From Eubacteriales bacterium (GTDB lineage Bacteria; Bacillota; Clostridia; Oscillospirales; CAG-272): 64,000 nt of DNA. Below, one piece after another: positions 36,190-45,307 of the stretch. Below the pieces are notes generated by a model that saw nothing but the letters and a program-made list of their open reading frames with translations, had not been told where the DNA came from and did not search any database. Numbering within the stretch: position 1 is the stretch's first letter; the number at the start of each line of letters is the position of its first letter. The DNA is taken from the NCBI GenBank assembly GCA_045598385.1, contig JAZLLY010000016.1, positions 146,000 through 209,999 of the forward strand. The letters run 5' to 3'. A program made the translations under genes and the position numbers.

Positions 36190-37500
36190 ATGGCTGAAAA
36201 CAAGTCCGACTTCCGTTGTTGTTCATTCTGCGGAAGAAAAGAAACGGAAGTGTCTCTTCTGATCCCCGGTCAGGACGGAAAAAGTTATATCTGTGAAAAC
36301 TGTATCGACGTCTGCGCCGGTTTTCTCGACGAGCATTTTCATCTTCCCGACCCGGATGCCGAAGAACTCACTTTTGAAAATCTTCCGAAGCCGGCGGATA
36401 TCAAGCAAATGCTCGACGATTACGTGATCGGACAGGATCAGGCAAAATTGGCGCTCAGCGTCGCCGTTTACAATCATTATAAGCGGATTCTTCATCTCGG
36501 CGACGGCGAAAAGAACAAAAAAAGACGCGGCAAAAAGCCGCAGAACGACACGGGGGCTCCGGAAGTCGAACTCCAGAAATCGAACGTTCTTCTTCTCGGT
36601 CCGACCGGCGTCGGAAAAACGTATCTCGCGCAGACGCTCGCAAAGAGTTTCAAAGTCCCCTTCGCGATCGCAGACGCGACCACCCTGACGGAGGCCGGTT
36701 ACGTCGGTGAAGACGTCGAAAATATTCTTCTGCGTCTGATCCAGGCAGCCGATTACGACGTTTCCCGCGCGGAAAAAGGTATCATCTATATCGACGAGAT
36801 CGACAAGATCTCAAGAAAAGGCGAAAACCGATCCATTACGCGTGACGTCTCCGGCGAAGGCGTTCAGCAGGCACTCCTGAAGATCCTTGAGGGCACCGTG
36901 GCGAACGTTCCCCCGCAAGGCGGAAGAAAGCATCCGAACCAGGAATTCATCCAGATCAACACGAAAAACATCCTGTTTATCTGCGGCGGCGCCTTTGACG
37001 GCATCGAATCCGTGATCGAACAGAGAAAAGGCAATCAGCTGATCGGATTCGGCACCGAAAAAGTCACGAAGAGCGAAAAAGCCGCGCAAGGCGTCTATAA
37101 AGATGTCATCGCGCACGACGTCGTGAAATACGGTCTGATCCCGGAACTCGTCGGGCGTCTCCCCGTCATCGTGACGATGGAAGCCCTGGACGAAGACGCT
37201 CTCGTCCGCATCATTAAGGAACCGAAAAACGCGCTCTCCAAACAATATGAAAAACTCTTTGAGCTGGACGGCATCCGCCTCGAATTCGAGGACGCGGCGT
37301 TTTCCGCCATTGCCCGCATGGCGACGGAAAGACAAACCGGCGCGCGCGGTCTTCGCGCAATCATGGAGACGCTGATGATGAAGCCGATGTACGACTCACC
37401 CTCCGATCCCTCGATTGAAAAAATCATCGTAACGGAAGATTTCGTGCTCGGAAAAGGCGACCTTACGATCGTCAGAAAAACCGAAACTCAAAGCGCGTAA
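36190..37500 (+). CDS. clpX: ATP-dependent Clp protease ATP-binding subunit ClpX
   Basis: A zinc-binding N-terminus (CSFCGR...CENC), Walker [22 protein letters not shown] and [10 protein letters not shown]. Confidence 0.98.
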
Positions 37501-37523
37501 AATCCATTTTTGATTAACACTTA

Positions 37524-37583
37524 ACAGAAAAAAACGCTGACGTTCCGTTTCATACGGAGACGCCAGCGTTATTTTATTCTTTT
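37524..37583. terminator. Bidirectional terminator between clpX (+) and the AraC gene (-)
   Basis: A long imperfect hairpin (AACGCTG..TCCGT-TTCAT-ACGGA..CAGCGTT) is flanked by AAAAAAA upstream and ATTTTATTCTTTT downstream. Confidence 0.7.
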
Positions 37584-38422
37584 GTCATTTTTCGGTAGGC
37601 GATGGGGCTCATACCGGTGTCAGCTTTGAATATCTTATGAAAATGATTGGGACCCGAAAATCCGAGAGACTCCGAAATGTCCGCGACGCTCTGCGTGTCA
37701 TAGGACAAAAGAATCATTGCGCGGTTGACGCGGAGGGTATTGATGTAATCAATCGGCGTTGTTCCTATGCTGTCCTTGAACAGTTTTGTAAAGTGATCGG
37801 CGGAGATCATCATCATTTCCGCTAAATCTTCAACATAGATTTTTTGCAAAAAATGTAAAGAGATATAGTCAAGAACCGGCTTAAATCGCAAAACATTGTG
37901 ATAAACGGTCTCGTCATTCTTGCCGCGCGTCGTGAAATACGAACGCAAAACAGCCCCCGCCATACGGAATACCGCCGAAAAAACATTGATACGATAGCAC
38001 ACGTCTTTTCCCCAATACTCATCGGTTGCGAGCATCATATTCTCGAGCAGAAGAGGATAGACGGGGTCGTCTTCACGATAGAAAAAAATACGGTTTTTCG
38101 ACTGTACATCGAACATATAGCAGAGATCGGAATCGACGCTTTCGAGTTTTTCCTCGATCAGCGCGTGGGAATACAAAAGACTCACGAGCGAAGCGGAATC
38201 GGAGAGCGCCTCCGCTCTTCTGACCATTCCTTTCGGAATGAAGAATATCGTCCCTTTTTGTCCGACGGTCGAATAAGTGCCGATAAATACTCTGACCGTG
38301 CCGGACTCCACGTACAGAAATTCGTCCGCGTCCTCAAAAAAAGTGGGTTTATACAGTATCCCGTTTCCGCTTTTCCTGCCGACGGAGAATGGAAACACCG
38401 AAGCATCCAGAGCAGACATCAT
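37574..38422 (-). CDS. AraC family transcriptional regulator (third gene of the CobW operon)
   Basis: A cupin-like N-terminal half (LYVESGTVRVFIGTYSTVGQKGTIFFIPKGM) is followed by the C-terminal HTH pair (VEDLAEMMMISADHFTKLFK...VADISESLGFSGPNHFHKIFK). I prefer the ATG at 38422, 43 nt after the upstream stop. Confidence 0.85.
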   Translation of the reverse strand: MMSALDASVFPFSVGRKSGNGILYKPTFFEDADEFLYVESGTVRVFIGTYSTVGQKGTIFFIPKGMVRRAEALSDSASLVSLLYSHALIEEKLESVDSDLCYMFDVQSKNRIFFYREDDPVYPLLLENMMLATDEYWGKDVCYRINVFSAVFRMAGAVLRSYFTTRGKNDETVYHNVLRFKPVLDYISLHFLQKIYVEDLAEMMMISADHFTKLFKDSIGTTPIDYINTLRVNRAMILLSYDTQSVADISESLGFSGPNHFHKIFKADTGMSPIAYRKMTKE

Positions 38423-38465
38423 TTTTCGTCCTTTCGTCAGTTTATCCGTTTCAATACCTTGAAAA

Positions 38466-39425
38466 TCAATAAAACGTGGCAACTTCCACCTGCGGTTTTT
38501 CCGCGGGCAGAAGAGACGATACCTTCAGTATCGGTCCCTCACCCTGATAAAGGGGAGAATATCCGAACGAGAGTTTTCCCGTTACGGCGACCCAGTCACG
38601 GGTCTTGAGCGAATGCCCCATCATCCCGGACGCGACGACACCGCGATAAGCGATATCCGCCTCGCAGCACGTCATGATATGGCGCCCGATGGCGAAATCG
38701 CCTTTCGGCAATACGCGGTCAAGGGCAACGATTCCTTTGAAAGAGACGGTTTTCCCGTCGTATTTTCCGAAATCCTCCGACATATCCCGATAAAAAATAG
38801 CAAAATCCTCATCTTTTATCGTGATAACAGGTGCCAGAACGTCGAACGGCAGCGGGTCCTCGAACGTATCGAATTCGATCTCGCCCTTTACGTCCTCATA
38901 ACAGATATTGGCTTTCCGGCTGACCCCTCTGACAAGTTTGTGTAAACTTTCCTTGTCAGTATTTTCCCCTACGCGGTTGAACACCGTCATTTCACAGCTG
39001 GAAAGTTTATCGACGGTCAACTGACGCATATTGGCGTTATAAGAGAGGATCGTCTGACTGTCGGCGATAAATATCTCCTGATAAACCATCCAGTTTTCCG
39101 GCAAAGCGTTATAAAACCGGTCGAGCGTCCACATACCGTTGTATTCCACAACGACGACGTCGGCTTTTGCCCTTTTCTGCATCGCGGAAAGGCGATCAAC
39201 GGTCAAGGACTGTTCGTCATCAATCGTCGTCATCGTGACGTTCGGAGAAAACGCGGTGGGATCGTATTCTTCCTCGCCGTCTTCACAACGGATGATGAGA
39301 TACTCCCGTTTCGCATCGTTGAAATTGGGATCCGCCATCGTTTCAATGATAAACTTTGTTTTTCCCGCCTCAAGAAAGCCGGTAAAAAGATAGACGGGTA
39401 TTTCCACGGGTTTCGACATACGCAT
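38466..39425 (-). CDS. Fusion protein: degenerate CobW/G3E-like P-loop domain plus C-terminal CCxxD (DUF1980/TIGR03943-like) domain
   Basis: The N-terminus YLFTGFLEAGKTKFI keeps the Walker A motif, but the CxCC metal motif is replaced (IIRCEDGEE). The C-terminal approx 110 aa contains GRHIMTCCEADIAYRG, which I remember as the hallmark of the YcgQ/DUF1980 C-terminal domain. The start ATG shares 1 nt with the stop of the upstream CobW gene. Confidence 0.6.
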   Translation of the reverse strand: MRMSKPVEIPVYLFTGFLEAGKTKFIIETMADPNFNDAKREYLIIRCEDGEEEYDPTAFSPNVTMTTIDDEQSLTVDRLSAMQKRAKADVVVVEYNGMWTLDRFYNALPENWMVYQEIFIADSQTILSYNANMRQLTVDKLSSCEMTVFNRVGENTDKESLHKLVRGVSRKANICYEDVKGEIEFDTFEDPLPFDVLAPVITIKDEDFAIFYRDMSEDFGKYDGKTVSFKGIVALDRVLPKGDFAIGRHIMTCCEADIAYRGVVASGMMGHSLKTRDWVAVTGKLSFGYSPLYQGEGPILKVSSLLPAEKPQVEVATFY

Positions 39426-40579
39426 TATACTCCAAACAGTTCGCGAATTTTTTCTTCGTTGATTTTTGAACCGATGACGCAGAGTCTGCCTATGATACCG
39501 GCAGATCCGTAACGGACGTCGGGCTCACCGGGAACATAGTCGAAATGGATCCACTGTCCGTCGGATCCCTCAACGATTCCCTTCGCGCGAAGGATCATGC
39601 CGTAATCCGGATCCTCGACAAACGCTTCGAGCGCCGCTTTGATCTGCTCGGCGGTGAATTTATGCGTCGTTTCTGTTCCCCAACTGGTAAAGACCTCGTC
39701 TGCATGATGATGGTGATGATGCCCGCAATGGCACTCTTCTCCGTCTTCGTGGTGATGATGGTGCTCATGCTCATCGTCATCGTCGTCATCATCGTCGTCG
39801 TGATGATGCCCGCAATGGCATTCTTCCCCGTCTTCGTGGTGATGATGATGCTCATGCTCATCGTCATCGTCGTCGTCATCGTTGTCGTGATGATGCCCGC
39901 AATGGCATTCTTCCCCGTCTTCGTGGTGATGGTGATGTTCGTGTTTTTCTTCCTCGGCAAGTTTGTCGAGAATGTCAAGCAGGGTATCTTTCCGCTCCAT
40001 CGCCTTGAGGATCTCGGCGCCGGAAAGAAGCGCCCAATCGGTCGTTACGACGGTCGCGGTCGGGTTGTGTTCACGCAGGAGGGCAACTGCCTCTTCGATC
40101 TTTGCGTCGCTCGCCTTTGCCGTGTGGGAAAAAACGACGGCAGACGCGTGCTCGATCTGATCATTGAAGAACTCGCCGAAGTTCTTCATATACATTTTGC
40201 ATTTGTTGATATCGACGACTGTCGTGAAACAGTTGAGTTTCGCCTCTTCCGAATCCACAGACGACGCGGCGTTAATGACGTCGGAGAGTTTTCCGACGCC
40301 GGACGGCTCGATGATGATGCGGTCGGGATGATACTCGTCCACGACACTTTTGAGTGCTTTTCTGAAATCACCGACCAGCGAACAGCAAATACAGCCGGAA
40401 TTCATTTCCGTGATGTTGATGCCGGCGTCCTGCAAAAAGCCGCCGTCAATGCCGATCTCGCCGAATTCGTTTTCGATGAGAACGACTTTTTCCCCCTGAT
40501 ACGCTTCCGCGATCAGTTTTTTGATCAGTGTCGTTTTTCCGGCACCGAGGAACCCCGAAAAAATGTCGATTTTTGTCAT
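39425..40579 (-). CDS. CobW/G3E-family metallochaperone GTPase with triplicated His/Asp/Cys-rich insert
   Basis: Walker A SGFLGAGKTTLIKKL, the CxCC motif NSGCICCSL, IIEPSGVGK, and a CobW C-terminal domain (ILRAKGIVEGSDGQWIHFDYV). Between the domains lie three copies of HEHHHHHEDGEECHCGHHHD(N/D)DDDDDDDE. The start is ambiguous: ATG 40579 gives MTKIDIFSGFLG, while ATG 40603 abuts AAGGAG with no spacer. Confidence 0.88.
   Translation of the reverse strand: MTKIDIFSGFLGAGKTTLIKKLIAEAYQGEKVVLIENEFGEIGIDGGFLQDAGINITEMNSGCICCSLVGDFRKALKSVVDEYHPDRIIIEPSGVGKLSDVINAASSVDSEEAKLNCFTTVVDINKCKMYMKNFGEFFNDQIEHASAVVFSHTAKASDAKIEEAVALLREHNPTATVVTTDWALLSGAEILKAMERKDTLLDILDKLAEEEKHEHHHHHEDGEECHCGHHHDNDDDDDDDEHEHHHHHEDGEECHCGHHHDDDDDDDDDEHEHHHHHEDGEECHCGHHHHHHADEVFTSWGTETTHKFTAEQIKAALEAFVEDPDYGMILRAKGIVEGSDGQWIHFDYVPGEPDVRYGSAGIIGRLCVIGSKINEEKIRELFGV
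39713..39950 (-). repeat. Tandem 87-bp coding repeat, about 2.7 copies
   Basis: The plus-strand unit is GTGATGATGCCCGCAATGGCATTCTTCCCCGTCTTCGTGGTGATGATGATGCTCATGCTCATCGTCATCGTCGTCGTCATCGTTGTC. Copies start at approx 39713, 39800 and 39887 and differ by only a few nt. The repeat is in frame (29 codons). Confidence 0.9.
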
Positions 40580-40625
40580 GATACTTTGCCGCTCTTGCGG
40601 CATCTCCTTATACTTTTACGCAATA

Positions 40626-40654
40626 ATTATATATCAGAAAAACGGCAATGTCAA
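40626..40654 (-). promoter_or_regulatory. Consensus sigma-A promoter of the CobW operon
   Basis: The minus strand reads TTGACA (40654..40649), a 17-nt spacer, then TATAAT (40631..40626). Both hexamers are perfect matches. Confidence 0.7.
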
Positions 40655-40661
40655 CATCTCT

Positions 40662-40692
40662 AAAAAAACGGGGTATCAAACCCCGATTTTTT
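40662..40692. terminator. Terminator after the PAP2 gene (bidirectional architecture)
   Basis: AAAAAAA-CGGGGT-ATCA-AACCCCG-ATTTTTT. The minus-strand reading gives a stem followed by TTTTTTTA directly after the PAP2 stop. Confidence 0.75.
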
Positions 40693-41350
40693 ATGGCATT
40701 CTCTCATCCGTCAGTTTCAGAAGACCGGAATAGAAAAACAGAAGAGAGACCGACAAAAACAGTCCGCCGATCAGATCCGTCAACCAATGCACGCCGGACA
40801 AAAACCGTCCTATGACCGTCAGAAACATCATTGACACAAGGACGGATACGATCAGAGTATAAACGATCGTGCCCGTCCGTTTTTTGAAGAGCGGGACGCT
40901 CCCTGCGAAAACGGTCACGGAAAGTACGGTATGCGAGGAGGGGTAAGAGTTCTCCGCTTCCCCATTGAGAAGAACGGGACGGACGTTGATTCCTATGACC
41001 TCAAAAAGAATATAAAAACCTACCGTAAAGGCAAACAGCACGCCGAGGCAAAGAATATCGGGATCGACGAGAAACAACTTTTTTCTTAAAATCCATTGAT
41101 ACGCTCCGAGCAAGGCAAATCCCGACGCCAGAGCGACGGCAAAAAATCCGAGCATCTTTGTCAACCGGTAAAAAAACGGATGAAAAGAAAACCGTAAAGC
41201 AACAGGACGGTTGATAAAAGCAAACCCGACGGTACTGCCGTCGGGTGCTAAACTGTCCTTATCAACAAAACGAAGAAGAACCGTGAAAATGACGAAGATC
41301 GCAAGAAATACCGATGCGGTCAGAAAGTCCTTTTTGGTTCTTTTATTCAT
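40691..41350 (-). CDS. PAP2-family (type 2 phosphatidic acid / undecaprenyl-PP) phosphatase
   Basis: A polytopic membrane protein with YPSSHT (the PSGH-like motif) and SGVHWLTDLIGG (the SRxxxxxHxxxD-type motif). Confidence 0.8.
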   Translation of the reverse strand: MNKRTKKDFLTASVFLAIFVIFTVLLRFVDKDSLAPDGSTVGFAFINRPVALRFSFHPFFYRLTKMLGFFAVALASGFALLGAYQWILRKKLFLVDPDILCLGVLFAFTVGFYILFEVIGINVRPVLLNGEAENSYPSSHTVLSVTVFAGSVPLFKKRTGTIVYTLIVSVLVSMMFLTVIGRFLSGVHWLTDLIGGLFLSVSLLFFYSGLLKLTDERMP

Positions 41351-41353
41351 CTT

Positions 41354-42598
41354 TTAACCTCTGCCGGGGAATACTTCTTTTTCGTAATTTTCGGCTTCAA
41401 AATACCAGTCTTCGACCTGTCCCTCGCGTCTGAGGTATTCACACCAGACGTCGCCGAAAGGCATGGTTTTCATGACTTCGAGAAGATGCTGAAGTTTTCC
41501 GAAAGCCGCCGCATCCTGCAACTGCCGCAAGGTATCGTTCGGCTGAAGAAGCGCAAAAAGCAATCCCTTTTCCACCGAACGCTCGCCGGTCACCCAGGCA
41601 CCGATACGGTTGATGGACGCGTCGAAATAATCCAGCGCGATCTTGACCTTTTCGGTCGCGTCGTTTCTGACGATCTCTTTGCAGAGTTCTTTGAGTTCAT
41701 CCTCAAAAATAACGACGTGATCGCTGTCCCAGCGGACGGGGCGGGAGATATGGAGGGCGACTTTGTCGTAAAAGGCGAGAAGCGAGGGGATCTTGTCGGA
41801 AACGACCTCGGTCGGATGATAATGGCCGGTGTCGAGAAGACAGCAGATCCCGCGCGTCGCTGCGTAATTCTGATAAAATTCGTTATTTCCGACGGTGTAA
41901 CTTTCCAGTCCGATTCCGAACACCTTGCTCTCCACGGCGACCGTCACCCACTCCTTGTCGTAATCGGCAAGAATGCGATCGAGAGAATCTTTCAGGCGCA
42001 GACGGGGAGACAGACGGTCAGCGGGGATATCCTTGTATCCGTCGGGGATCCAGATATTGACAAGACAGGGCGAACCCATAGCGCGCCCGAGTTCCGCGGC
42101 GATCTTCAGGCAACAGATGCCGTGACGGATCCAGAAGGATCTCGTCTCTTCATCCGGGGAGGAAAGGGAAAGACCGTCCTTCATCATGGGATGACCGAAG
42201 AAAGTCGGATTGAAATCGATTCCCTTAATGCCGTTTTCCTTGGCGAACTTCACCCACGGCTCAAAATGACGGAACGTATAGGCGTCTCTGTCAACCTTTC
42301 CCTTATCGTCTCCGAGGATCGCGTAGCAGGCGTGAAGATTGAGACGTTTTTTACCGGGCATAAGAGAAAACGCTTTTTTGATATCCGCCATCAGCTGGTC
42401 GGGACCGGTCGCACGCCCGGGGTAATTTCCGGTGGTCTGGATACCGCCGCTGAGCGAATCGGAACCGTCGAAGCCGAGAACGTCGTCGCCCTGCCAGCAA
42501 TGAACGCTGACGGGAATGTTTTGAAGAACGGAGATCGCTGCCTCGGTATCAATACCGTAAGCGGCGTACATGGCTTTTGCTTCATCGTATCTTGACAT
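41354..42598 (-). CDS. rhaA: L-rhamnose isomerase
   Basis: IPVSVHCWQGDDVLGFD parallels E. coli RhaA LPVSMHCWQGDDVSGFE, and the length (414 aa) fits. No rhaB or rhaD is nearby. Confidence 0.88.
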   Translation of the reverse strand: MSRYDEAKAMYAAYGIDTEAAISVLQNIPVSVHCWQGDDVLGFDGSDSLSGGIQTTGNYPGRATGPDQLMADIKKAFSLMPGKKRLNLHACYAILGDDKGKVDRDAYTFRHFEPWVKFAKENGIKGIDFNPTFFGHPMMKDGLSLSSPDEETRSFWIRHGICCLKIAAELGRAMGSPCLVNIWIPDGYKDIPADRLSPRLRLKDSLDRILADYDKEWVTVAVESKVFGIGLESYTVGNNEFYQNYAATRGICCLLDTGHYHPTEVVSDKIPSLLAFYDKVALHISRPVRWDSDHVVIFEDELKELCKEIVRNDATEKVKIALDYFDASINRIGAWVTGERSVEKGLLFALLQPNDTLRQLQDAAAFGKLQHLLEVMKTMPFGDVWCEYLRREGQVEDWYFEAENYEKEVFPGRG

Positions 42599-42628: not shown

Positions 42629-42657
42629 AGTCTATCACAAAACGTCAGTCTTGTCAA
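42629..42657 (-). promoter_or_regulatory. Candidate sigma-A promoter of rhaA
   Basis: The minus strand reads TTGACA (42657..42652, overlapping the upstream stop codon), a 17-nt spacer, then TAGACT (42634..42629). Confidence 0.5.
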
Positions 42658-44090
42658 GAATAAAAGGCGGAAAAAAGGGCTTCGGTTTCGGAGTACGGGA
42701 TCTCTTTTCCGTATTCGTTCTGCGACGTTTCCCGACCTTTCCCGAGAAGCAGAACGACGTCGCCGCTTCCGGCAAGCGAAACGGCGTATTTCACCGCTTC
42801 TCTTCTGTCTTTCACCGTCTTTGCCCGCGTTTTGTCGGAAAACGCTTCGTACATATCGCCGAGAATACGGTAAGGATTTTCAAAGCCCGGATTATCGGAA
42901 GTGAGAATACAGAGGTCGCACATTCTTTCTCCCATTTTGGCGAGATCGTACCGTCTTTTCTGTCCTCTCTCTCCGACGGAACCGAATACGGCGTACAATT
43001 TTCCGGGATACATTTTCCGGCAAAGAGAACAGACGGCGTAAAGACTCGTCGCATTATGCGCGTAGTCAATGATGACGTCTTTGCCGTCGTGGGAATAACG
43101 CTCAAATCTCCCGCTCACGCTGACGTCCGAAAGAAGCGGCAATACTTTCTCCATAGGTACGGAGAAAAGCCGGCTGACGGCGGCGGCGGAAAGCATCGCG
43201 TTGACAAGTTGATGTTCTCCCGGCATTGGCAAAAAATACTCTTGTCCCCGATAACGGTAGTTCATCCCGTCGGGAGAAAGCCGCGTTACCGTCGCGAAGT
43301 AATCGGCAGGATGCGTTTTCGAGACCGTATATCGCAAAACGCCGGTATCCGTTACGGTATCGGAATAAATATCGTCATCGTTGACCACGGCAAAAGAAAG
43401 CGGAAAATCCGAAAACAGTTTCCGCTTCGCGGAGTAATAAGCACGGAAATCCGCGTGCTCAAAAACACCGATGTGATCCATCCCGATACAGGTAAAAATG
43501 CCGACGCGGATCGGAAGAGCGAAAAGCCGACCGTCGGAAAGACTCTGACTCGACATCTCGATCGTCACGACTTTCACTTCTTCATCCCGCCATTTTGCGA
43601 AAAGCGGAAAGAGAGTGAAAAAATCCGGCGTGGTGTTTTTTGTCTTTTCGTATTTTCCGTTGACGCCAACGCCGAGAGTTCCGACGGCGGCGTTTTTGAT
43701 ACCGAGTTTCGTAAGGATAGACGAGATGAACGATACGACGGTTGTTTTTCCCTTTGTTCCCGTTACACCGATAAAAATCATCTGATTTTGCGGGTAATTG
43801 TAAAGTTTTGATAGCAATTCCCAGGATGTTCGTTTCACGTTATCGGTTTTCAGAACGATAGCGTCAGGCGGCATTTCCGTTTTTTTATCACAAATAAAAA
43901 ACCGACAGCCGCGTTCGTATGCCTCACGAAGATACAGATGACCGTCGGTATGATGCCCCGCCACGCAGGCAAAAACGGATTCACCGTCCGCCTCTCCGGA
44001 GGTGGCCGTCAGCGTTCTGATCTCCCGGTCATTTTCGGTTTCGGCTACATTTTCATACGGTGTATTTCCGAGCAATTTCGATAATTTCAA
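42654..44090 (-). CDS. Mur ligase family protein, MurE-like (UDP-MurNAc-tripeptide synthetase paralogue; amino-acid specificity unclear)
   Basis: Domain 1 (DGESVFACVAGHHTDGHLYLREAYERG), P-loop GVTGTKGKTT, GMDHIG, DYAHN, and SDNPGFENP where DAP-adding MurE has DNPR. I trimmed the start to TTG 44090 (MKLSKLLGN), which overlaps the upstream stop as TTGA. The longer track ORF has an Arg-rich N-terminus inside the upstream gene. Confidence 0.8.
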   Translation of the reverse strand: MKLSKLLGNTPYENVAETENDREIRTLTATSGEADGESVFACVAGHHTDGHLYLREAYERGCRFFICDKKTEMPPDAIVLKTDNVKRTSWELLSKLYNYPQNQMIFIGVTGTKGKTTVVSFISSILTKLGIKNAAVGTLGVGVNGKYEKTKNTTPDFFTLFPLFAKWRDEEVKVVTIEMSSQSLSDGRLFALPIRVGIFTCIGMDHIGVFEHADFRAYYSAKRKLFSDFPLSFAVVNDDDIYSDTVTDTGVLRYTVSKTHPADYFATVTRLSPDGMNYRYRGQEYFLPMPGEHQLVNAMLSAAAVSRLFSVPMEKVLPLLSDVSVSGRFERYSHDGKDVIIDYAHNATSLYAVCSLCRKMYPGKLYAVFGSVGERGQKRRYDLAKMGERMCDLCILTSDNPGFENPYRILGDMYEAFSDKTRAKTVKDRREAVKYAVSLAGSGDVVLLLGKGRETSQNEYGKEIPYSETEALFSAFYS

Positions 44091-45307
44091 AGCGCGTCTT
44101 TTGCCATCCTTTCTTTCGTAAACGCTTTCCCTCTTCTCTTTTCGTGGATCATGACGTAGATCGCTCTGACCGGACGAAAACGCACGTCCGCATTCCCGTG
44201 GAAAGGAGAAAAGGCGAACCCGTTTTTCGCGTACTCTTCGGCGAGAGAAAGAAGTTGTGCATTCTCGGCGTGCTCTCTCACGGTCCTGTCGTTGACACAT
44301 CGCCAGTATATCCCGGGATACGTCAGTTTCTTCGGATAGTTATCTCCCGCCGCCTCGGTTCTCAGAAACTCCGCGACGCTGACCCCGCATCCTCTCAGAT
44401 AATCTGAACTTCTTCCCTGCCTCGGATTCATTTCGAGAACGTAAACTTTTCCGTCTTTCCCGTACAGGATATCGAAATTCCCGATGCCCTCATAGCCGAT
44501 CTCCTGGCAATAGGCAAGAAGACGATGCGAGATCTCATCCATCGGCGCCGTAACGATCGCGGCGTAATTTCCTCTCGCGGTCGGCGCCCGCTCTTCGAGA
44601 AGAATATGCCCGAGAACACCGCGCCGCACTCTGCCGTCCTTTCCGATCATAACGGTGAAAGTTGCCATAGACCGCGCATCAACGTATTTCTGGAGCAAAA
44701 GTGTTTTGTCGTATCCCGCGGCAAAAATCCCGGTGGCGATCTTTTCGGCTTCTTCCCGGTTTTTTGGGAAATACACTTTCTTCATACCCGGAAAAGGATG
44801 GCTGTAATACGCCGTACTGTCGGACGGTTTCAGTACCGCCGGGAAAGGAATATCGCTCGCGGTCAATACCTTTTCCACTTCAAATACCGAGCCGATGACT
44901 TCGGTTTTCGGGTATGCTATCTCATGCCGGTCGAGCGACTCGTAAAACGATTTCTTATCCGACACCATGAAAAATATATCTTTCGGCGGAATGAAAAAAG
45001 TGTATTTTTCCCGCAGTATTTCCCGCGTTTTCTCGAGGAAAGACAGGTACCAGTCGGAGCAAGGCACCAGAAACAGTTCCTCTTCTCTGTGTTTTTCCGC
45101 AAAAGACAAAAGTGCGGCAACGCCGCATTCTTCTTTGTCCATGTCTTTCACGACGTGTGTCCTGACAAAGCGTGAATGTTCGGTGATGCCGCACTTGTAG
45201 CGTCCGAACGCGTGAGATTTCAGACCGTAAGTTTCAAAAAACGAGAGCGCCACGGAATAAGCGTTCAGATCCAATCCGAGCAAAACGGGAACGAATGAGC
45301 GTCGCAT
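44087..45307 (-). CDS. ATP-grasp carboxylate-amine ligase (D-aspartate-ligase-like family)
   Basis: From the ATG at 45307 (RBS AAGGAGGATT) the protein reads MRRSFVPVLLGLDLNAYS. It continues with PAVLKPSDS, LLLQKYV and GNFDILYGKDGKVYVLEMNPRQGRSS, the ATP-grasp E-x-N-x-R Mg/ATP motif. Confidence 0.75.
   Translation of the reverse strand: MRRSFVPVLLGLDLNAYSVALSFFETYGLKSHAFGRYKCGITEHSRFVRTHVVKDMDKEECGVAALLSFAEKHREEELFLVPCSDWYLSFLEKTREILREKYTFFIPPKDIFFMVSDKKSFYESLDRHEIAYPKTEVIGSVFEVEKVLTASDIPFPAVLKPSDSTAYYSHPFPGMKKVYFPKNREEAEKIATGIFAAGYDKTLLLQKYVDARSMATFTVMIGKDGRVRRGVLGHILLEERAPTARGNYAAIVTAPMDEISHRLLAYCQEIGYEGIGNFDILYGKDGKVYVLEMNPRQGRSSDYLRGCGVSVAEFLRTEAAGDNYPKKLTYPGIYWRCVNDRTVREHAENAQLLSLAEEYAKNGFAFSPFHGNADVRFRPVRAIYVMIHEKRRGKAFTKERMAKDAL

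Follow-up and report, generated by a model that had tools for sequence, protein, structure and literature searches.

A 64,000-nucleotide stretch of contig JAZLLY010000016.1 from an Eubacteriales bacterium (the window) carries two adjacent minus-strand genes, g1 and g2, whose products would form an obligate two-protein, nucleotide-driven NTPase module of the G3E (COG0523) type, handling a thiophilic divalent metal in the cytoplasm. We give this reading about an even chance. The first protein is a complete CobW-type NTPase; the second joins a related G domain without the CxCC metal motif to an oligonucleotide/oligosaccharide-binding (OB) fold, DUF1980_C. A third gene, g3, encodes an AraC-family regulator, and the three minus-strand open reading frames (ORFs) occupy 37574..40603. 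The first-pass annotation of this DNA had proposed that all three belong to a soluble metal-handling module of undescribed function. The functional part of that proposal is kept as the most likely reading, and the literature found here holds no paper on the CobW/DUF1980_C fusion or on the g1-g2 pair. Its membership is revised: comparative genomics gives the pair as the unit, the AraC gene being limited to the clade of the window.

The g1-g2 pair

Pfam recognizes both cobW (PF02492; 127 bits, cutoff 20.7) and CobW_C (PF07683; 26.4 bits, cutoff 22) in g1. When g1 is aligned with five orthologs, GFLGAGKT, ENEFGE, GCICC, EPSGVGK, the terminal HHHADEVF and the LRAKG of the C-terminal domain are all invariant. 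GCICC, placed between switch I and Walker B, is the CxCC motif, unchanged in six orthologs; like GFLGAGKT and EPSG it lines up with its counterpart in YjiA, which is also GCICC. On the strength of Pfam and these motifs, the earlier description of g1 as a complete G3E/CobW protein (Walker A, CxCC, CobW_C) stands, with two corrections. The ORF finder placed the start at 40603, where an ATG directly abuts AAGGAG; because every ortholog begins MTK(I/V)DI, the true start is most likely the ATG at 40579. The other correction concerns the G4 motif, (N/T)KxD, which is absent: SHTA stands opposite TKTD of YjiA, and the orthologs have SHT, SHV or SRT; therefore the guanine-specifying Asp is absent in the g1 subfamily. 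The protein also falls below the NCBIfam equivalog cutoffs for CobW (81.5 vs 332), ZigA (76.5 vs 600) and PRK11537/YjiA (80.6 vs 361).

g1 also carries a His/Cys/Asp-rich linker encoded by a tandem repeat, the 29-aa unit being HEHHHHHEDGEECHCGHHHDxDDDDDDDE. Linker length and sequence vary among orthologs; ExCxCG(C)H motifs occur in 4/5 of those aligned. A plus-strand ORF at 39545..40663 (372 aa) is the antisense mirror of this repeat region and is not a gene.

The domain assignments of g2 were likewise upheld by profile searches. Its aa 10-171 match cobW at 26.0 bits (cutoff 20.7), and its aa 200-312 match DUF1980_C (PF21537) at 71.6 bits (cutoff 25.9), which bears out the earlier recognition of its C-terminal signature as that of the soluble YcgQ/DUF1980 domain. 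Against TIGR03943 it scores 75.8 bits and does not reach the cutoff of 88.8, with only the C-terminal half of the model (positions 106-218) aligning. The same Pfam search of g2 gave neither PF07683 (CobW_C) nor PF09323 (DUF1980_N, the transmembrane part). A profile of 64 diverse g2 members nevertheless aligns with the g1 family at 99.2% hhalign probability (E 8e-20, 172 columns), and the GCICC loop of g1 stands opposite a seven-column gap in that profile: as first proposed, g2 retains GFLEAGKT and is without CxCC, the loop having been deleted.

The P-loop residues are kept in g2. Invariant in the 64 members are G16, G21 and K22 (Walker A); E48 and G50, within CEEGEEE at the switch I position; E94 and N96, within the Walker-B-like VEYNGMW; and R248 of the C-terminal domain. 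Where G4 would be, 62/64 members have N150-R151, and 17/64 have an Asp at +2; M251, C253, C254, D257 and W278 are retained in at least 61/64. With Walker A, Walker B and N-R conserved in all or almost all members, the protein is divergent and not, as the first-pass annotation had called it, degenerate. AlphaFold2 models g2 as two domains (pLDDT 95.6, pTM 0.82). Foldseek places the N-terminal one closest to YjiA and HypB, with UreG, MeaB and SRP GTPases also matched. In place of an RxKG-bearing domain, g2 ends in a generic OB fold (pLDDT 94.6 when modelled alone); a PDB sequence search with g2 returned nothing significant, and this domain is without a close solved relative.

Coordinates of the features described in the text (window numbering unless a related locus is named)
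Feature	Position	Strand	Basis
g1, complete COG0523/CobW NTPase (384 aa, counted from MTKIDI)	39425..40579	-	Pfam, ortholog alignment
87-nt tandem repeat, 2.6 copies, 95% identity, encoding the g1 His/Cys/Asp-rich linker	39713..39937	-	repeat scan
g2 (319 aa), COG0523-type G domain without CxCC, fused to a DUF1980_C OB fold	38466..39425	-	Pfam, AlphaFold2, Foldseek
G domain of g2, aa 8-185, with GFLEAGKT (Walker A), CEDGEEE, VEYNGMW (Walker-B-like) and FNR	38871..39404	-	hhalign, column counts
g2 DUF1980_C domain, aa 200-312, OB fold	38490..38828	-	PF21537, 71.6 bits
g2 signature RHIMTCCEAD (R248, M251, C253, C254, D257)	38655..38684	-	64-member alignment
g3, AraC/XylS-family regulator, weak cupin-like N-terminal domain, ATG start	37574..38422	-	Pfam
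Sigma-70-type promoter TTGACA-17-TATAAT	40626..40654	-	promoter scan, 12/12
Shine-Dalgarno AAGGAG (40609..40604) and 6-bp hairpin (40602..40587) ahead of the conserved g1 start	40587..40609	-	-11.5 kcal/mol, z -2.2
Intrinsic terminator after g3, hairpin + U7, facing convergent clpX	37527..37570	-	-23.9 kcal/mol, z -5.7
ABC exporter pair in related loci	L002 (7077..10578), L007, L008, L012, L016, L021, L042, L058, L061, L071		

The family is not rare: g2 relatives are very common, and gut bacteria by the thousand have the pair. Each of two protein searches with g2 gave at least 8000 candidates, all past the E-value threshold; a representative library at 50% identity holds 258 g2 clusters with E <= 1e-30, full-length members (about 315 aa) reaching down to 32% identity; and narrow peptide patterns find relatives in 573 stretches of a species-representative genome collection. 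Among the pattern matches listed, all are named gut Clostridia, Eubacteriales, Oscillospiraceae or uncultured Ruminococcus metagenome-assembled genomes, except for one bin labelled Coriobacteriaceae (L007). The cultured Vescimonas fastidiosa has the pair, labelled 'CobW family GTP-binding protein' and 'GTP-binding protein'; Subdoligranulum variabile is known from a match to the g2 C-domain alone (44% identity). Public labels for g2 members range over 'GTPase', 'GTP-binding protein', 'TIGR03943 family protein' and, at JGI, 'uncharacterized membrane protein YcgQ'.

Pairing was followed in about 170 related loci (~1.7 Mb), 80 of them in the clade of the window; one distant branch was reached by a profile-based metagenome scan with eight closer members. 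Wherever there is enough flank, g1 is adjacent to g2, down to 32% identity. Within the clade g1 lies directly upstream in 80/80 loci (two apparent gaps, checked by eye, were BLAST artefacts), and the order g1-g2-AraC is kept, with synteny to clpX-clpP-tig. In a branch about 33% identical in g2, g1 is found upstream in 68/80 loci, some contigs being too short upstream of g2; the isolated distant loci that have upstream flank all carry the pair. The median distance from g1 stop to g2 start is 3 nt (73 loci). In the window itself the two overlap by one base (TAATG), as the first-pass annotation had it, and a second ATG lies 6 nt further downstream. What follows g2 varies outside the clade: 26 and 18 loci have pth-mfd there and 7 have a DUF885-like peptidase, and others have an M18 aminopeptidase, rpsF-ssb-rpsR or, in one lineage, a convergent rplQ-rpoA operon. 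No AraC gene was found at any g1-g2 locus outside the clade of the window. Because the pair persists where AraC never occurs, these comparisons make g1-g2, not the three genes, the conserved functional unit. The two partners appear to evolve at different rates: at two distant loci (L082, L084) g1 is still 55-60% identical while g2 is down to 32-41%, a contrast that would fit an adaptor evolving faster than the conserved enzyme it accompanies.

Two kinds of neighbor recur near the pair. Many relatives have a Mur-ligase gene upstream of g1, some of them directly adjacent to it (window 42654..44300, minus strand; L036 1734..3296; L039 3179..4522). A recent report (PMC12208494) has the COG0523 protein MigC acting on a Mur ligase, MurD, in Acinetobacter; the gene near g1 may be no more than conserved synteny. 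In distant lineages an M18 aminopeptidase and the DUF885-like protein (HEGFPGH) stand directly downstream of g1-g2 on the same strand, with M20 peptidases nearby (L084-L086 3022..4404; downstream of g2 in L144, L145, L159, L161, L163, L170 and L174; L081; L090). It is possible that these metallopeptidases are client enzymes.

How the metal-handling module might work can be pictured from its parts. g1 is a full metallochaperone, with its CxCC metal site beside the nucleotide and an expandable His/Cys/Asp linker in which metal could be stored. According to a 2026 preprint (PMC13001444), COG0523 proteins use RxKG as their arginine finger, and the C-terminal domain can act in trans. LRAKG of g1 fits RxKG, g2 has no such motif, and the CobW_C domain of g1 would then supply the only arginine-finger domain of the module. 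g2 is an old paralog that kept the catalytic P-loop machinery without the CxCC loop or CobW_C; it would bring a second P-loop and, in its OB fold, an Arg...Met-x-Cys-Cys-x-x-Asp cluster. Translated in a constant ratio from one coupled message, the two would presumably work as a complex, in which nucleotide binding and hydrolysis move Zn, Ni or Co between the CxCC/His-rich sites of g1 and the Cys-Cys-Asp site of g2, the metal then passing to a client or transporter. Metal binding by that g2 cluster, and the direction of transfer, we infer. The metal theme itself is carried by GCICC and the ECHCGHHH repeats in g1, and in g2 by an R/C/D signature common to membrane DUF1980 proteins, two of the three aligned being encoded beside copper genes.

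Several points weigh against the metal-handling reading. The Cys-Cys-Asp cluster is assumed to be a metal site from its chemistry alone. The closest solved folds to the g2 C-domain are nucleic-acid- and protein-binding OB folds; no metal-binding one, CusF-like and Mop-like folds included, is among the top 50 structural neighbors. Among the genes conserved beside the pair there is no metal-responsive regulator, no transporter and no obvious client. Canonical DUF1980 proteins may expose the C-domain outside the cell, in which case the cytoplasmic domain of g2 may do a different job. Finally, an AT-rich element at the promoter (below) could be an operator of another kind, contrary to constitutive expression.

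DUF1980 membrane proteins and their permeases

DUF1980 proteins (ScfB, YcgQ) are otherwise membrane proteins paired with ArsP_1 permeases (YcgR, ScfA). The family is known for a fitness phenotype in group A Streptococcus (PMC5584981) and, in S. mutans, for acid tolerance. Its function is not given in the literature that could be searched, which also does not establish the link to metal homeostasis that the first-pass annotation took as given; that link comes from context only. ZevAB, a Haemophilus zinc system considered as a possible permease+DUF1980 homolog, was set aside, as the papers annotate its products as components of an ABC transporter (periplasmic component, permease).

Three canonical loci were inspected, two in Priestia and one in Clostridium butyricum, and in each the DUF1980 protein is paired with a permease. 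On Priestia megaterium pBM400 (L093 2156..8775) two permease+TIGR03943 pairs stand in tandem beside YcnI/CopC copper genes. R248, C254 and D257 of g2 are common to the three canonical C-domains; the first Cys is His in one. In the membrane part of the two pBM400 proteins, between hydrophobic segments, there is also a His/Cys loop (HDHNCDCGCGHSH / LTCECSHDH) that recalls the ECHCGHHH repeats of g1. The window lacks this membrane half of the system, as first noted: g2 has no PF09323 match, and tblastn with three permeases gave no match to the permease part in the 64-kb window or in the ~1.7 Mb of related loci; no ArsP_1 gene lies within 5-10 kb of the pair at ~170 loci.

A different arrangement of the same parts occurs on C. 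butyricum pNPD4_2 (L094 3904..6384). The 'permease' WP_071981825.1 (537 aa) joins ArsP_1 (PF03773, 200 bits) to a G domain of the cobW type (52 bits; GLLESGKT, IETNGM, no CxCC), and the next gene encodes a TIGR03943/DUF1980 protein, WP_071981824.1. By hhalign the G domain scores 138.8 (E 3e-21) with the g2 profile and 85.7 (E 2e-12) with that of g1, and so is nearer to g2, the two profiles differing greatly in depth (64 vs 6 sequences). A database search with it gave eight matches, essentially all C. butyricum, of 130-238 aa with cobW only, one of them marked 'partial'; the one record to show the fusion to ArsP_1 was the RefSeq entry inspected. With a g2-type NTPase, an ArsP_1 permease and DUF1980_C recombined in this way, the predicted domains provide domain-fusion evidence for a functional link.

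One alternative to the metal-handling module builds on this arrangement. It supposes that g2 and its partner g1 serve, in the cytoplasm, as nucleotide-driven helpers of a permease of the ArsP_1/YcgR type whose gene lies elsewhere in the genome: DUF1980_C would dock on or gate the permease, and the G domain would energize or gate transport. The C. butyricum protein, which joins a CxCC-less G domain of g2 affinity to ArsP_1 with a DUF1980 gene next to it, and the pairing of canonical DUF1980 proteins with permeases in all three inspected loci, both speak for such a split transporter. It has to contend with the lack of any ArsP_1 gene near the ~170 pairs or in the window, with the rarity of the G-domain-permease arrangement and with the unequal depth of the profiles that make the G domain look g2-like. 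Topology is a further difficulty: a positive-inside count by eye on the three canonical sequences puts the C-domain outside the cell if three transmembrane (TM) helices are assumed, and the published two-TM prediction for ScfB would put it inside. We consider the split transporter unlikely, though it is the main rival; a dedicated AraC regulator, a nucleic-acid role and Zur control are less likely.

The metal-handling module can also be extended to the membrane forms. g1-g2 would then be a naturally split COG0523 machine, with g2 activated in trans by the C-terminal domain of g1 and the OB-fold Cys-Cys-Asp serving as a nucleotide-gated metal station; the DUF1980/ArsP_1 pairs would be metal transporters, whose DUF1980_C hands metal to or takes it from G3E NTPases. 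This whole picture is tentative, and we doubt more than we expect that all of it will hold.

AraC, nucleic acids and Zur

In the window g1, g2 and g3 form a single transcription unit, because a promoter lies upstream, the 43-nt g2-g3 gap contains no stable structure (folding z +0.7) and a terminator follows only g3. This agrees with the first-pass annotation, which had also noticed the perfect promoter: TTGACA at 40654..40649, a 17-nt spacer and TATAAT at 40631..40626, the sole 12/12 match in 37300..41000. The PAP2 gene upstream ends in a terminator-like hairpin (40685..40669), and the promoter begins 14 nt beyond it.

Of the earlier description of g3 as an AraC regulator with a cupin sensor, the first part holds, with HTH_18 (PF12833, 72.6 bits) and HTH_AraC (PF00165, 61.3 bits) both above cutoff; for the second there is a weak match, Cupin_2 reaching 21.9 bits against a cutoff of 27.2. 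Orthologs of the regulator follow g2 in most of the 80 clade loci, at 39-45% identity where g2 is 65-77% identical. The g2-AraC gap has a median of 33.5 nt in the 66 loci measured and is below 50 nt in 43 of these; in some 16 loci a terminator follows g1-g2 and AraC has a promoter of its own. Ten of the 80 loci have an ABC exporter pair on the same strand between g2 and AraC, a generic MsbA-like/MDR-like heterodimer of ~570 and 597 aa with no specific equivalog. In a neighbor-joining tree of g2 these loci fall at six or more separate places, among them the nearest relatives of the window (L008, L002, L007). The simplest reading of that scatter is an ancestral order g1-g2-abcA-abcB-araC from which the exporter was lost repeatedly, in the lineage of the window as elsewhere. 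Because the ABC pair separates g2 from AraC in scattered relatives, the regulator is probably a clade-specific passenger that arrived with an exporter module since lost here, not a dedicated chaperone regulator.

The contrary view makes AraC the metal- or ligand-sensing regulator of a three-component system. It can point to co-transcription in the window, to the retention of AraC after loss of the ABC pair in most of the clade, and to the short gap in the majority of loci. Against it, AraC is confined to the clade, the ~16 loci with separate signals uncouple it from the pair, and its sequence is much less conserved than that of g2. The cupin match is under threshold, and the HxH-type candidate metal ligands (HRHE) of the AraC protein in L002 are not conserved in g3. 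Activation of the g1-g2 promoter by AraC is also unlikely because the promoter is already consensus and the 14 nt between the upstream terminator and the -35 box leave no class I or class II activator site. Altogether, a dedicated regulator seems quite improbable.

Another perspective starts from the OB fold and supposes that it binds nucleic acid, or a ribosome- or tRNA-associated target, within a translation- or RNA-linked GTPase system. The best structural neighbors of the C-domain are Ten1, RPA14/32, the N-terminal anticodon-binding domains of AsnRS/AspRS, and SSB; a canonical DUF1980 protein has a weak tRNA_anti-like match (E 0.003); the conserved Y222, K225, R248 and W278 would suit nucleic-acid binding; and in other lineages the pair lies beside pth-mfd (26/80 loci), rpsF-ssb-rpsR or rplQ. 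The structural similarity, however, is at the generic OB-fold level (TM-score ~0.58, identity 13-18%), and membrane permease subunits have the same domain, R/C/D signature included, as their soluble part, a setting in which a nucleic-acid ligand would make little sense. The near-invariant vicinal Cys-Cys with Asp and Met is typical of metal sites, and the obligate partner is a textbook metallochaperone. This account is very unlikely.

Control by Zur was raised by the first-pass annotation from a presumed half-site, TAATTATTGCG, overlapping the -10 box. The best match to the 7-1-7 Zur box in the window is 9/14; over 36 orthologous upstream regions (the window included) the mean best match is 8.19 of 14 against 8.39 in shuffled controls, no better than chance. 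Zur, Fur and PerR operators, sought as the Bacillus 7-1-7 boxes, all did no better in the 36 leaders than in shuffles. Promoters matching at 10/12 or better stand at the equivalent place in 34 of these 36 regions, all but one with a 17-nt spacer. A strong promoter without a recognizable Fur-family (Zur/Fur/PerR) operator fits a housekeeping role over one in zinc starvation, and expression of g1-g2 would be constitutive. The idea of a Zur-repressed zinc-starvation operon of the ZagA/ZigA type, for which g1 offers COG0523 hallmarks and a His-rich linker as in the Zur-regulated subfamily-1 proteins, and the overlap of TAATTATTGCG with the -10 box a candidate site, is the least probable of all, given the operator counts, the scores of g1 far below the ZigA and YjiA cutoffs, the lack of znuABC, zur or zinc-independent paralog genes beside the pair in any locus examined, and neighbors that are housekeeping genes (clpX, pth-mfd, ribosomal operons).

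Two other features of the leader deserve description. In about a third of the orthologous promoters the -10 box is followed directly by an AT-rich element that resembles ATATTTGT(T)AAAATAT and forms an imperfect 6-4-6 inverted repeat; the version in the window (40604..40625) is TATTGCGTAAAAGTAT, which is not a Zur, Fur or PerR box. It is also present in L015, L023, L025, L027, L028, L038, L045, L049, L052 and L055, tracking phylogeny and not universal. Ahead of g1, the Shine-Dalgarno sequence AAGGAG stands 24 nt upstream of the ATG at 40579, with the hairpin UGCCGC-AAGA-GCGGCA in between. The same layout recurs in about 10 of the 36 leaders, with differing hairpin sequences; it may be a structured spacer that draws the Shine-Dalgarno sequence near the AUG, or a translational control element. 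An Rfam scan of 36500..42000 found no leader riboswitch, only a chance miRNA match below threshold.

Known relatives and significance

COG0523 chaperones have been studied as single proteins serving zinc-starved cells. With those proteins (YjiA, ZigA, ZagA/YciC, CobW, ZNG1) g1 shares the P-loop, ENEFGE, CxCC, ExSG, the His-rich linker and the RxKG of the C-terminal domain; it differs in having SHTA for (T/N)KxD and in scoring below every curated equivalog cutoff. The G domain of g2 is homologous to theirs, with YjiA its top structural match, but an OB fold takes the place of CxCC, CobW_C and RxKG. The two are always paired, an arrangement on which no paper was found for the studied COG0523 proteins, and they are without Zur control.

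With the YcgQ/ScfB/TIGR03943 proteins g2 has in common the C-terminal OB fold and the R...(C/H)CxxD signature; unlike them it has no DUF1980_N and no adjacent permease, and is fused to a cytoplasmic P-loop NTPase. The C. butyricum system uses the g2-type G domain and the same NTPase, permease and DUF1980_C modules, but there the G domain sits on the permease, DUF1980 is membrane-anchored and no g1-like CobW gene is adjacent; in g2 the G domain sits on DUF1980_C and no permease is present. HypB with HypA/SlyD, and UreG with UreE, likewise combine a Cys-site NTPase and His-rich storage with a second metal-binding protein from the same operon; they differ in that the partner of g1 is itself a paralogous P-loop NTPase, and no hydrogenase or urease genes are linked to the pair.

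The pair is a widespread, unstudied variant of the COG0523 metallochaperone theme, and the fusion in g2 links that theme to an uncharacterized permease family. A large uncharacterized lineage of gut Clostridia, which includes the human commensal Vescimonas, always encodes its COG0523 chaperone as a pair, and the partner paralog has moved the candidate metal site onto an OB fold, without an RxKG of its own. This makes g1-g2 a natural test case for the recently proposed trans-acting arginine-finger mechanism. An annotation error is corrected as well, several such soluble NTPases being called 'membrane protein YcgQ' at JGI. By tying DUF1980_C to G3E NTPases, the pair also yields a testable hypothesis, that the ScfB/YcgQ membrane forms, which matter for streptococcal virulence, handle metal. 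If the picture of a split COG0523 machine proved true, it would provide the first functional handle on the DUF1980/ScfB/YcgQ-ArsP_1 permease pairs, fitness factors of Streptococcus pyogenes.

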